From assembly GCF_003334765.1 (NCBI RefSeq), contig NZ_QOWT01000007.1: a stretch of 64,000 nt of DNA; one strand, given 5' to 3'. Source of the stretch: Escherichia coli (GTDB lineage: Bacteria; Pseudomonadota; Gammaproteobacteria; Enterobacterales; Enterobacteriaceae). Each line of letters starts with the position of its first letter. Position 1 is the stretch's first letter. Positions 1,366 through 10,662 of this stretch are shown piece by piece. The position numbers and the translations under genes were made by a program. The notes below the pieces were generated by a model. That model ran no database searches, was not told where the DNA came from, and was given only the letters and a program-made list of their open reading frames with translations.

Positions 1366-2793
1366 ATGAGCGATAAAAAGAAGCGCAGTATGGCGGGTTT
1401 GCCGTGGATCGCGGCGATGGCCTTCTTCATGCAGGCACTTGATGCCACTATTCTTAATACCGCCTTACCCGCAATCGCTCATAGCCTTAATCGTTCTCCT
1501 CTCGCGATGCAATCAGCCATCATCAGTTATACGCTGACGGTGGCGATGCTTATTCCGGTAAGCGGATGGCTAGCCGATCGCTTCGGTACGCGTCGCATTT
1601 TTACCCTTGCCGTGAGTCTGTTCACATTGGGTTCTCTGGCCTGCGCACTTTCTAATTCGCTACCACAGCTGGTTGTCTTCCGGGTTATTCAGGGGATAGG
1701 CGGCGCAATGATGATGCCTGTTGCTCGGCTGGCCTTACTGCGCGCTTATCCTCGTAATGAACTTCTTCCAGTATTGAATTTTGTCGCCATGCCGGGTCTG
1801 GTGGGGCCAATTTTAGGCCCCGTTCTTGGCGGCGTGCTGGTCACCTGGGCAACCTGGCACTGGATATTTTTAATCAATATCCCCATAGGTATTGCGGGCC
1901 TTCTTTACGCGCGCAAACATATGCCCAATTTCACCACCGCACGACGCAGATTCGATATCACTGGCTTTTTGCTGTTTGGCCTCAGCCTTGTTCTCTTCTC
2001 AAGCGGAATAGAGCTATTCGGGGAAAAGATTGTCGCCAGCTGGATTGCCTTGACGGTAATTGTCACCAGCATCGGGTTACTGCTTCTCTATATTCTCCAT
2101 GCACGACGCACGCCAAACCCATTAATTTCATTAGATTTATTTAAAACCCGCACTTTCTCGATCGGTATCGTAGGCAATATTGCAACCCGTCTGGGGACCG
2201 GCTGTGTACCGTTCCTTATGCCATTGATGTTACAGGTAGGATTTGGTTATCAGGCGTTTATTGCTGGCTGTATGATGGCACCGACAGCGTTAGGTTCCAT
2301 TATTGCAAAATCGATGGTTACCCAAGTCTTACGTCGTCTGGGCTATCGCCATACGTTAGTGGGGATCACGGTGATTATTGGGCTAATGATCGCTCAGTTC
2401 TCTTTGCAATCACCAGCAATGGCTATATGGATGCTGATCTTGCCGTTGTTTATATTAGGGATGGCTATGTCGACGCAGTTTACCGCGATGAATACCATCA
2501 CACTTGCCGATCTGACCGATGACAATGCCAGCAGCGGTAACAGTGTTCTGGCGGTCACGCAGCAACTGTCGATTAGTTTAGGCGTTGCTGTAAGTGCGGC
2601 CGTCCTTCGCGTTTATGAAGGAATGGAAGGCACAACGACTGTCGAACAATTCCACTATACGTTTATCACAATGGGCATTATTACTGTTGCTTCAGCAGCA
2701 ATGTTCATGCTTCTGAAAACAACCGATGGTAATAATTTGATCAAAAGACAGCGTAAATCTAAGCCGAACCGCGTTCCATCAGAATCGGAGTAA
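1366..2793 (+). CDS. hsrA: MFS-family efflux transporter
   Basis: ORF track 1366..2793, 475 aa; hydrophobic multi-TMS protein with MFS-type motifs; K-12 synteny (yieO/hsrA). Confidence 0.85.
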
Positions 2794-3751
2794 GTTGTAA
2801 TCGTTGTTGCTGAAGGGTCGGCTGGGTTATCCGATGGATGAGTACATCAATCGCCAGCTCCCCCAGTTCATCTTTCGGTTGGTGGATAGTGGTTAATGGT
2901 GGCGTCATAAAGCTTGCCAGTTCGATATCGTCATAGCCAATCACCGCGATATCCTGCGGAACCTGTAACTCTGCCTGATATAACGCCTGGTAAACGCCAA
3001 CAGCCATAGCGTCATTTCCGGTAAAGACGGCCTGAGGACGCAGCGGATGTGATAGCAGTTGGCGCATAGCGTCAAACCCGCCGTTAAATTCAAAATCACC
3101 AGTGACTTCATAGCCATCAGGAATGTTGAGACCCGCACGTTTCATCGCCGCCCGATAACCTTCCAACCGCAGGCGCGCCGGAGTTTTATCCAGCGGGCCG
3201 GTAATACAGGCGATACGGGTATGACCTTTATCGATCAGATATTGCGTTGCTAAGTCTCCGCCCAGCAACGAGTTATCCTGAATAAGATCGCTGTCGCCAT
3301 CGAACGGAGCCCAGTCCATCATCACAGTAAGCACTGTCGGATAACGTTGCATGATTTCACGCGAAGGTTGATGCGTTTCGGTGCACAGTAACAGCAAGCC
3401 ATCAACGCGTTTTTGCATCAGCGTTTCCAGATTGCGATTCATCCGCTGTTCATCGCCTTCGGTATTGCAAAGGACGAGACTATAACCGCGTTCGAAGCAG
3501 CTGCGTTCAACGCCACGCACCAGTTCTGAATAGAAAGGATTGGTACTGGCAGTGATCAACATGCCAATGGTATGTGTTTGATTGAGTTTGAGGCTACGCG
3601 CCAGAGCTGATGGCGCGTAATTGAGTTCTTTAATCGCCGCTTCAACTTTGGCGGTAATCGCTTCACTGACGAAGCGATCTTTATTGATAACGTGAGAAAC
3701 TGTTGAGGTAGAAACGCCCGCCAGGCGGGCAACATCTTTCATTGTAGCCAA
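2759..3751 (-). CDS. rbsR: Ribose operon repressor, LacI family
   Basis: ORF track 330 aa; N-terminus [24 protein letters not shown] (LacI-type HTH); directly downstream of rbsK. Confidence 0.95.
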
Positions 3752-3754
3752 GCG

Positions 3755-4684
3755 TCACCTCTGCCTGTCTAAAAATGCGTCGATCTCTTCACGCCACGGT
3801 ACGGAAGGTTGTGCGCCTTTACGTGTTACGGCAATCGCAGCGGCAGCATGGGCAAAACGAATCGCCTCTGGCAATGGTTTTTCTTCCAGCAATGCCGTGA
3901 TTAACGCACCGTTAAAGGTATCTCCGGCAGCAATGGTATCGACAGCCTGCACCCGGAATCCAGGAACGCGCTGACCTTCACCATTCACGCTAGCCCATAC
4001 ACCACGACTTCCTAAAGTAATCAGTACAGTACGGATACCTTTTTCATGCAGTACCTGCGCCGCCTTCGCTGCATCTTCATCATTTTCAACACGAATACCG
4101 GTGAGCTTTTCTGCTTCCGTTTCGTTTGGCGTAATAATGTCCACCAGCGCCAGCAGTTCGTCAGGAAGTTCGCGAGCCGGAGCCGGGTTAAGCGCAACGA
4201 TAGTCTTATTTTGATGGGCGATTTTCGCCGCTGCCATCACACTTTCGAGTGGTGATTCCAGCTGCATTAATAATGCTGACGCGTTGGCAATACGCTCACG
4301 TTGCGCTTCCACCAGCGCCGGGGAAAGGGCAGCATTAGCGCCGGCATGAATACCGATGACATTCTCACCTTCGCCATTAACAAAAATCAGCGCCACACCT
4401 GTTGATTCGCCTTTGATCACGCTGACCGGAGTAATATCAATGTTATCAGTGGCGAGCTGCTGGCGAACGCTCTCACCAATGCTGTCATCACCCGTACAGG
4501 CAATAAACGCGATATTCGCACCGCTACGCCCAGCAGCCACAGCCTGATTCGCGCCTTTGCCGCCAAATGCAACCTGATAGTGGTTACCGGTTACGGTTTC
4601 GCCTGGAGTAGGAAAAGATTGAAGATTAAGAATGTGGTCAGCATTAATGCTGCCAAGAACAACGAGACTGCCTGCGTTTTGCAT
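3755..4684 (-). CDS. rbsK: Ribokinase
   Basis: ORF track 3755..4711; I place the start at the internal Met (MQNAGSLVVLGSINADHIL), giving 309 aa; PfkB-family motifs. Confidence 0.93.
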   Translation of the reverse strand: MQNAGSLVVLGSINADHILNLQSFPTPGETVTGNHYQVAFGGKGANQAVAAGRSGANIAFIACTGDDSIGESVRQQLATDNIDITPVSVIKGESTGVALIFVNGEGENVIGIHAGANAALSPALVEAQRERIANASALLMQLESPLESVMAAAKIAHQNKTIVALNPAPARELPDELLALVDIITPNETEAEKLTGIRVENDEDAAKAAQVLHEKGIRTVLITLGSRGVWASVNGEGQRVPGFRVQAVDTIAAGDTFNGALITALLEEKPLPEAIRFAHAAAAIAVTRKGAQPSVPWREEIDAFLDRQR

Positions 4685-8207: not shown

Positions 8208-8627
8208 TCAGAACGTCACGCCAGCACAGAGAATGATATTCGCATACGGAGAACATTCTCCGCTGCGAATTACCGCCTGACTTTCTGCGGTTTGTTGTTT
8301 GAATTGTTCATGCGTGGTGTAACGAATTTCAATGGTATTTCCCTGGTGTTTTTGCAGCTGCTCAAGGTGAGTGAGCAACGTTTCGTGGAGTTGCGGATTA
8401 TGGTGTTTGATCTCTTCCGCGATAATGGCCGCCTCGACCTGCATTTCATTTGTGACGACGCCCAGCACCTGCATAAAAGAAGGTACACCCTGGGTTAATG
8501 CCATATCGATACGCGTTGTACTTTTGGGGATGGGTAAACCAGCATCACACACCACCAGCGTATCGGTATGTCCCAGACGGGAGATCACCGATGAAATATC
8601 AGAATTAAGAACGGTGCCTTTTTTCAT
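8208..8627 (-). CDS. rbsD: D-ribose pyranase
   Basis: ORF track 8208..8663; start placed at [23 protein letters not shown] (139 aa) with GGAG 7 nt upstream; the longer track ORF would read through the operator. Confidence 0.9.
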
Positions 8628-8638
8628 TTTTTTCTCCA

Positions 8639-8658
8639 TCAGCGAAACGTTTCGCTGA
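8639..8658. promoter_or_regulatory. RbsR operator (perfect 20-bp palindrome)
   Basis: TCAGCGAAACGTTTCGCTGA is its own reverse complement; LacI/PurR-type CG-centred operator immediately upstream of the rbsD Shine-Dalgarno. Confidence 0.8.
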
Positions 8659-8793
8659 CCCACAGTTTAATCCTGACTGAGTTGGGAAAACCATCGTGAC
8701 GTTACGGAAATGTGATCAACCTCGAAACGTTTTACATGGTGATTAACCATGAAAACAAAAACGCCCCCTTATGAAGAAAGGAGGCGTCTGGCG

Positions 8794-10662
8794 TTAGATT
8801 TCGACCTGAGTACCCAGTTCGATAACCCTGTTTGGCGGGATTTCAAATTGATCTGGTGCACGCAGCGCATTACGTTGCAGCAGCAAGTACAGCTTGCCGC
8901 GCAGACGCAAATACCACGGGCGTTTGCCGAGGATCAACGACTCATGCGACATAAAGAAGGAGGTTTCCATCATCCGGCAACTTAATCCTTCCAGACCGCA
9001 GCGGTGGAAAACTTCTTCTACGTTTGGCGTTTCTCGCCAACCATAACTTGCCACCACGCGCCAGAAAGTGGGCGACAGTTGTTCAATCTGTACCCGACGG
9101 ACGTTATGGACATATGGAGCGTCTTCGGTGCGCAGAGTTAACAGAATCACCCGCTCATGCAATACCTTGTTATGTTTAAGGTTATGCATCAGCGCAAAGG
9201 GAATGACGTTGATTGCACGCGACATATACACCGCGGTCCCGGGCACGCGAACAGGCGGTGATTTCTCCAGCGAAGCAATCATCGCTTCCAGAGAGTTACC
9301 ATGTTCATGCATCCGCCGCAGCAAGCGGAAACGCTCGCTCTTCCAGGTGGTCATCACGATAAACATCACAGTACCGAGGCTCAATGGCAACCAGCCGCCG
9401 GAGAGCAGTTTATCGAGGTTAGCGGTGAACAATGGAATATCGACACAAAGGAAAGCAATCAGGATCAGCGCAACAAAATACTTATTCCAGTGCCAGTTCT
9501 GACGTGCCACGGTAGTCGAGAGAATAGACGTCAGCACCATGGTTCCGGTCACCGCAATCCCGTACGCCGCCGCCAGGTTGCTGGAGTGCTCAAAGCTGAC
9601 AATCACAATCACGACCGCGACATAGAGCATCCAGTTCACAAACGGAATATAGATTTGCCCTGACTCCATTTCGGAGGTGTGAATAATGCGCATCGGCGAC
9701 AAATATCCCAGACGTACCGCCTGACGCGTCAATGAGAAGACGCCAGAGATAACCGCCTGCGAGGCAATTACCGTCGCCAGTGCGGCGATGATCAGCAGCG
9801 GGATCAGCGCCCAGTCCGGTGCCAACAGGAAGAACGGGTTCTTAATCGCTTCCGGGTTCTTTAACAACAGCGCTCCCTGACCGAAGTAATTAAGGGTCAA
9901 GGAAGGTAATACGACGGTGAACCACGCCAGGCGAATAGGGAACTTACCAAAGTGCCCCATATCAGCATACAGCGCCTCGACCCCCGTAATCGACAACACC
10001 ACTGCCCCTAATGCAATAAAAGAAACCGTTTTGTATTCAAGGAAGAAATGCACCGCCCACATTGGATTCAGCGCATGCAGCACTTCCGGGTTAGCAATAA
10101 TGCTACGTAACCCCAGTCCTGCCAGAATCAAAAACCAGGTCAGCATGATCGGCGCAAACAGCTTACCGACCATAGCCGTGCCATGTTTTTGAATCATAAA
10201 TAATAAAGTGAGAACGATAATTGAGAGGGGAACTATCCAGGTATCCAGCTGCGGGGCGACGATTTCCAGACCTTCAATGGCTGACATCACCGAAATAGCG
10301 GGTGTTATGACGACTTCACCATAGAAAAAGCTGCCGCCGATTAGCCCCATAATCACCAGCATTGATGTGGTTCGCGCCGACGTATTACGCCCGGCAAGCG
10401 ACATCAACGTCAGGATCCCCCCCTCACCGGCGTTATCTGCCCGCATCACGAAGGTGAGATATTTAATGGAAACCACAAAGATTAGCAGCCAGAAGATCAG
10501 CGATAAAAAGCCAAACACGGCATCGCGTTCAACGCCAAAACCAAACTGGCCGGACAAACATTCACGAAGTGTATATAACGGGCTGGTACCAATATCGCCG
10601 TAGACAACTCCAATCGCCGCGAGGGTAATCGCGGGCAATGATTGCTTATTATCAGTGCTCAT
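8794..10662 (-). CDS. kup: Low-affinity K+ uptake transporter (KUP family)
   Basis: ORF track 622 aa; N-terminus [30 protein letters not shown]. Confidence 0.95.

Follow-up and report, generated by a model that had tools for sequence, protein, structure and literature searches.

The palindrome ahead of rbsD in Escherichia coli as the RbsR operator rbsO, and a conserved second RbsR-type box farther upstream

The window, by which we mean the whole 64,000-nucleotide (64-kb) stretch of Escherichia coli DNA that was analysed, contains a kup-rbsDACBKR region of the E. coli K-12 type, reversed so that all of its genes lie on the minus strand (Table 1). In the MG1655 record the genes follow one another on one strand in the order kup, rbsD, rbsA, rbsC, rbsB, rbsK, rbsR. 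Positions 8560-8830 of the window are 100% identical to MG1655 and to many other strains, and a match to this segment was found in 5412 of 5426 complete E. coli genomes. The product of rbsR matches the NCBIfam RbsR equivalog model NF007743 from end to end at 692 bits (cut-off 531), and with rbsR the gene of a cognate LacI-family repressor is present at the same locus as the palindrome described below.

The kup terminator lies directly upstream of the rbs regulatory region and shields the rbs promoter from kup read-through. An Rfam scan of 8400-9000 found no known RNA family in this segment and returned one sub-threshold match (ctRNA_p42d, E 0.69), which is the kup terminator hairpin. On the other side of the regulatory region, the rbsD mRNA is a target of DsrA, and a sponge role has been proposed for it by which RpoS is translated less in the presence of ribose (bioRxiv 10.1101/2023.08.28.555190); the DsrA site lies about three quarters of the way along rbsD (8208-8627, minus strand) and is unrelated to the operator.

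Table 1. Genes and regulatory features of the kup-rbsDACBKR region, in window coordinates and in the direction of rbs transcription.
Feature	Position	Strand	Remarks and basis
kup	ends at 8794	minus	upstream neighbour of rbsD
kup intrinsic terminator	8759..8789	minus	strong; 12-pair stem and T-run; promoter/terminator scan
kup-rbsD intergenic region	8628-8793		166 bp
Distal RbsR-type box, sense GTAAAACGTTTCGA	8722..8735	minus	centre 8728.5, 80 bp upstream of rbsO centre
CRP-like site TTCGA-GGTTGA-TCACA	8711..8726	minus	centre 8718.5; sequence match
-35-region block TGGTTTT	8687..8693	minus	poor match to TTGACA; conserved; putative role
Predicted -10 hexamer TAAACT of the rbsD promoter	8664..8669	minus	conservation
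GTG opening the spurious 151-aa ORF	8661..8663	minus	between predicted -10 and predicted transcription start
rbsO, primary RbsR operator	8639..8658	minus	CG-centred perfect 20-bp palindrome, centre 8648.5
Shine-Dalgarno GGAG of rbsD	8634..8637	minus	6 nt before ATG, 1 nt after palindrome
rbsD, D-ribose pyranase, 139 aa	8208..8627	minus	RefSeq annotation; NCBIfam NF008761; solved homologues
rbsR, LacI/GalR-family repressor, last operon gene	2759..3751	minus	RefSeq annotation; NCBIfam NF007743

The earlier note on this DNA, made from the letters alone, had pointed to an exact 20-bp inverted repeat at 8639-8658, TCAGCGAAACGTTTCGCTGA, and the repeat is as it described: the two arms (8639-8648 and 8649-8658) are 100% complementary and meet without a spacer, giving an even symmetry around a central CG step (C8649 and G8648 on the sense strand). 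Read on the rbsD sense strand, the layout is ...TAAACT GTGGG TCAGCGAAACGTTTCGCTGA T GGAG AAAAAA ATG. The distance of about 12 nt that the note gave from the palindrome to the start of rbsD comes to 11 nt when counted (8638-8628, with the ATG at 8627-8625), and the palindrome does abut the ribosome-binding site, GGAG beginning one base past it. It is the sole perfect palindrome of at least 16 bp in the 64-kb window, where none of the others exceeds 14 bp, a length reached by three.

This palindrome is almost certainly rbsO, the operator of the ribose operon rbsDACBKR that is bound by RbsR when ribose is absent, and as such a real, functional and already known element. The most direct evidence for its identity, which bears out the assignment to RbsR in the earlier note, is that RbsR has been crystallised on the 30-mer GTGGGTCAGCGAAACGTTTCGCTGATGGAG, identical to 8660..8631 on the minus strand of the window (bioRxiv 10.1101/2025.04.02.646877). 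The same work describes crystal structures, at 2.1 A, of RbsR with ribose and with the operator DNA rbsO, uses an rbsO 30-mer that is self-complementary, and names ribose as the inducer of RbsR and rbsO as a site to which RbsR binds (bioRxiv 10.1101/2025.04.02.646877). PDB entries 9ny7 and 9ny8, entitled 'Ribose operon repressor', match the window RbsR over residues 2-330 (E 1.6e-219). A wild-type rbsDACBK operator, credited to Shimada et al., has been cloned into a reporter plasmid (Groseclose 2020), and the text of that paper implies an assay of the cloned operator with wild-type RbsR. In an EMSA, the purified RbsR of Serratia shifts a probe from upstream of rbsD, and its binding is abolished by 1% ribose. 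RbsR-DNA binding and ribose induction are shown in the literature, binding also by the PDB entries, and the EMSA or footprinting that had been suggested as a check has in essence already been done there.

A different repressor of the same family could also be considered, since PurR is the nearest solved relative of RbsR (PDB match, E 1e-93) and the palindrome might be an operator of this paralogous purine repressor or one common to PurR and RbsR. The PurR consensus half-site is GCAAAC, however, and the half-site found here is CGAAAC. PurR derived from RbsR by duplication and the motifs of the two are similar, but the RbsR motif is modified relative to that of PurR (Ravcheev 2014), and the published structure and reporter work use RbsR. 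We consider a PurR operator, or a shared one, very unlikely.

The assignment to RbsR is joined by a clear pattern of conservation. An RbsD search of species-representative genomes gave 255 matches, of which we used the best 80, all from Enterobacteriaceae and with protein identities of 86-99%; these best 80 of 255 matches and the MG1655 locus make up the 81 loci to which the counts below refer. The inner 16-mer AGCGAAACGTTTCGCT (8641-8656), central ACGT included, is present in 80 of the 81 loci (best 80 of 255 plus MG1655) and the 14-mer operator core in all 81, whereas the intergenic columns beside the operator are merely 0-60% identical to E. coli in the same set. With flanks as variable as these, the operator is conserved upstream of orthologous operons beyond neutral expectation (best 80 of 255 plus MG1655). 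Directly after it, TGGAG or TGGGG follows in 81 of 81 loci from this set.

Conservation does not extend over the whole of the perfect repeat. The outer two bases on each side of the operator are unconserved, most genera having TCAGCG...CGCTAG, and the symmetric part outside Escherichia measures 16-18 bp (both among the best 80 of 255 matches). The perfect 20-mer is confined to Escherichia, where all six loci carry it (81 loci, best 80 of 255 plus MG1655). The functional operator unit is the inner 16 bp, and the outer 2 bp per side are Escherichia-specific. Within E. coli, at least 5369 of 5426 complete genomes carry the palindrome unchanged; the exact K-12 46-mer around the operator was found in 1620 E. 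coli genomes, and a variant with one difference, which falls outside the palindrome, in 3749.

These results bear on whether the palindrome could be a chance occurrence without function. Perfect palindromes of 20 bp or more are expected 0.06 times per 64 kb by an analytic estimate and 0.09 times by 300 first-order Markov simulations, which amounts to about four per E. coli genome and gives chance some room. The perfection of the palindrome by itself is no more than mildly improbable and suggestive; its significance rests on position and conservation. It is located at the promoter of the operon to which the repressor gene belongs, its 16-bp core is kept in 80 of 81 loci against variable flanks (best 80 of 255 plus MG1655), and the RbsR crystal structure was obtained on exactly these bases. 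Conservation and the published structure already refute an origin by chance, to which we assign a negligible probability.

An inverted repeat so close to a ribosome-binding site may also be transcribed, and the palindrome could act mainly as RNA, as an 8-bp hairpin at the extreme 5' end of the rbs mRNA, where it would make the message more stable or adjust how readily the ribosome-binding site is reached. The predicted 5' end does fold in this way, its 8-bp stem closing a 4-nt loop (centroid -10.7 kcal/mol) and leaving 2 nt to the Shine-Dalgarno sequence, and such a hairpin could coexist with operator function as a side effect. Several observations nevertheless make a mainly RNA-based role unlikely. 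The fold of the 61-nt leader is unexceptional (z = -1.33, with 19 of 200 shuffles folding at least as well). The loop, ACGU, is as invariant as the stem in the 81 loci (best 80 of 255 plus MG1655), which is a better fit to protein-DNA recognition, and in the same set the outer positions change without compensation (TC..GA in Escherichia, TC..AG elsewhere). The same sequence appears again 80 bp upstream, outside the predicted transcript, and direct binding of RbsR to the DNA is documented (bioRxiv 10.1101/2025.04.02.646877). The 5' mRNA hairpin is at most a side effect of an element that we read as the DNA operator rbsO. An attenuator or terminator at the palindrome was rejected because the promoter/terminator scan called no terminator-like site there.

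The palindrome also touches on where rbsD begins. As the earlier note had observed, an open reading frame at 8208..8663 extends rbsD by 12 codons through the palindrome, to 151 aa from a GTG start. The note had taken this read-through as support for the shorter, 139-aa call; the 139-aa start is right, but the argument is invalid, given that operators can lie in coding sequence. A second in-frame start candidate, which the note had missed, is the ATG at 8639-8637 (minus strand), four codons upstream (MEKK-MKKG...), which consists of the last base of the palindrome and the TG of the Shine-Dalgarno region. Both the GTG and ATG 8639 are in frame in K-12, with no stop before ATG 8627, and rbsD might on that basis truly start at the GTG (151 aa) or at ATG 8639 (143 aa), making the palindrome coding sequence.

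Variation among genomes argues against both longer forms. Of 5379 E. coli genomes, 3749 (about 70%) have GCG in place of the upstream GTG and about 30%, K-12 included, have GTG; among the 81 loci (best 80 of 255 plus MG1655) the codon is a start codon solely in the K-12 locus. An in-frame TAG stands within the operator, five codons ahead of the ATG, in 39 of these 81 loci, and the operator and the ATG are separated by anything between 10 and 18 nt, some of these gaps not being multiples of three (best 80 of 255 plus MG1655). Even within the genus the gap is not fixed: E. coli UTAK-18 has a 1-nt deletion between the Shine-Dalgarno sequence and the rbsD ATG (five A instead of six, at the equivalent of window 8628-8633), and an Escherichia sp. 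locus (L003) likewise has 10 nt from palindrome to ATG. ATG 8639-8637 is present in Escherichia and in 1 of the 75 other loci (best 80 of 255 plus MG1655); most other loci carry TAG or TAA just before its position, overlapping its first base (best 80 of 255 matches).

The signals for translation and the protein comparisons agree with the shorter form. GGAG stands 6 nt ahead of ATG 8627, and neither upstream start candidate, ATG 8639 included, has a Shine-Dalgarno sequence of its own. RbsD matches positions 1-139 of 139 of the NCBIfam D-ribose pyranase model NF008761, and the solved homologues 3e7n, 1ogc and 3p12 (from Salmonella, B. subtilis and S. aureus) align from the Met at ATG 8627. The GTG, moreover, lies upstream of the predicted transcription start and would therefore be absent from the rbs transcript. 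We regard either longer start as extremely improbable, and the 139-aa start at ATG 8627 as secure.

The promoter itself was placed from conservation. At the -10 position, TA(A/C)ACT is about 90% conserved in the 80 species (best 80 of 255 matches); it has 7 unconserved nt after it and stands 7-8 nt ahead of the operator. Counted from this predicted -10, transcription would start at about 8657-8656, in the left arm of the palindrome; the operator centre would then fall at about +8.5 to +9.5 and the operator would extend from roughly -2 to +18. The operator probably overlaps the mapped rbsD transcription start. Its position relative to +1 rests on the predicted -10, because a literature search that included supplement text of Ettwiller 2016 and Kim 2012 found no measured rbsD transcription start.

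A generic sigma-70 scan called no promoter in 8500-8900, having missed the rbsD promoter because of its weak -35. In the -35 region, ATGGTTTT is about 90% conserved in the 80 species (best 80 of 255 matches). A poor -35 is usual for CRP-dependent promoters, and the negative scan fits an activator-dependent promoter of this kind. The CRP-like site upstream matches TGTGA-N6-TCACA at 8 of 10 core positions, and its centre lies about -61.5 to -62.5 from the predicted start, a class I position. Its GATCACA is invariant in a nine-species alignment, and TGATCACA at the site is about 90% conserved in the 80 species (best 80 of 255 matches), the right half being conserved.

Classical negative control is the mechanism that the evidence supports best. 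When ribose is absent, a dimer of the LacI/GalR-family repressor RbsR occupies the CG-centred palindrome rbsO and, since rbsO lies just downstream of the conserved -10 TAAACT, would block initiation sterically, by preventing either open-complex formation by RNA polymerase or promoter escape, much as LacI does at lacO1. Binding of D-ribose to the RbsR core lowers its affinity for the operator and derepresses the operon. Activation is probably supplied by cAMP-CRP at the class I position (about -61.5). The steric mechanism of repression, the transcription start and the CRP site are all points that we infer.

The operator has a putative counterpart upstream. The core CGAAACGTTT recurs at 8723-8732, and all 81 loci (best 80 of 255 plus MG1655) have an RbsR-type box whose centre is 78-80 bp upstream of that of the operator. 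In this set of loci the box reads GCGAAACGTTTCGA in 71 of the 75 loci outside Escherichia and TCGAAACGTTTCGA in the remaining four, and the six Escherichia loci all have GTAAAACGTTTCGA, in which two bases of the left half are substituted (GTAAAAC...). The distal box is thus near-perfect in the other genera and weakened in Escherichia (best 80 of 255 plus MG1655). The box and the CRP-like site overlap, the right half of the former with the left half of the latter. The 22-bp CRP footprint does not reach the left half of the box, which is conserved as well, so that CRP cannot by itself account for the conservation.

No paper was found by a full-text literature search for the sequence of the distal box in either orientation, and comparative-genomics resources (RegPrecise, Laikova 2001) may list it. 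One rbs operator is annotated in E. coli (Meinhardt 2012), and in the same study operator spacing made no difference to the LLhR chimera, in which the LacI DNA-binding domain is joined to the regulatory domain of RbsR. RbsR at the distal box would be expected to compete with CRP. It is possible, although we think it on balance doubtful, that the ancestral Enterobacteriaceae rbs promoter had two RbsR operators, of which the distal one would have repressed by excluding CRP, beside the block of initiation at rbsO. The perfect 20-mer of Escherichia might then be a compensation for the weakened distal box.

Matches to the 14-mer core with at most three mismatches number 12 in the whole window, against 5.3 expected. 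Two further matches lie near or within rbs genes. One, an RbsR-like box with three mismatches (sense ACGAAACGTTGCTC), is in the rbsD coding sequence at 8373-8386, 269 bp downstream of the operator centre; this 14-mer is exact in 58 of 81 loci (best 80 of 255 plus MG1655), synonymous positions included, a count that is confounded by coding constraint and by relatedness. The other, GCAAAACGAATCGC at 3852-3865, is a three-mismatch match to the RbsR core that falls in the 3' end of rbsK, some 100 bp ahead of rbsR, and may well be due to chance.

The pair of rbsO and RbsR is characterised, structurally solved and in use as a synthetic-biology part, and little is added to it here beyond the point that a real operator was recognisable from the sequence by itself. 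Comparison of the loci makes three matters more precise: the 16-bp functional core, the secure 139-aa start of rbsD, and the second box. This second RbsR-type box over the CRP-like site is present in most Enterobacteriaceae, judging by our set (best 80 of 255 plus MG1655), and is apparently undescribed. If functional, it would offer an uncomplicated natural example of competition between a LacI-family repressor and CRP.

Compared with known systems, the element in the window is identical to the E. coli rbsO bound by RbsR, with no difference, window 8660..8631 being the crystal 30-mer. A parallel in layout is lacO1 with LacI, which shares with rbsO a family dimer that sits on a palindromic operator and is released by the sugar inducer; the predicted place of rbsO just downstream of the transcription start and the putative class I activation of its sugar promoter by CRP would be further points in common. 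Repression of lac also involves the auxiliary operators O2 and O3 and looping by the LacI tetramer. Such auxiliary operators set lac apart from rbs, for which one operator is annotated in E. coli (Meinhardt 2012). The DNAs bound at rbsO and lacO1 are both bent by ~45 degrees, with hinge helices in the minor groove, but lacO1 is asymmetric with a central extra base, whereas rbsO is perfect and even and has no such base (bioRxiv 10.1101/2025.04.02.646877).

The operators of PurR, the closest paralogue of RbsR, resemble rbsO in being 16-bp CG-centred palindromes with a AAACGTTT core. They differ at the specificity positions, where the consensus of the pur boxes has GCAAAC and rbsO has CGAAAC. The two repressors also respond to their ligands in opposite ways: the ligand of PurR acts as a corepressor in DNA binding, while RbsR binds DNA in its ligand-free form (Ravcheev 2014).
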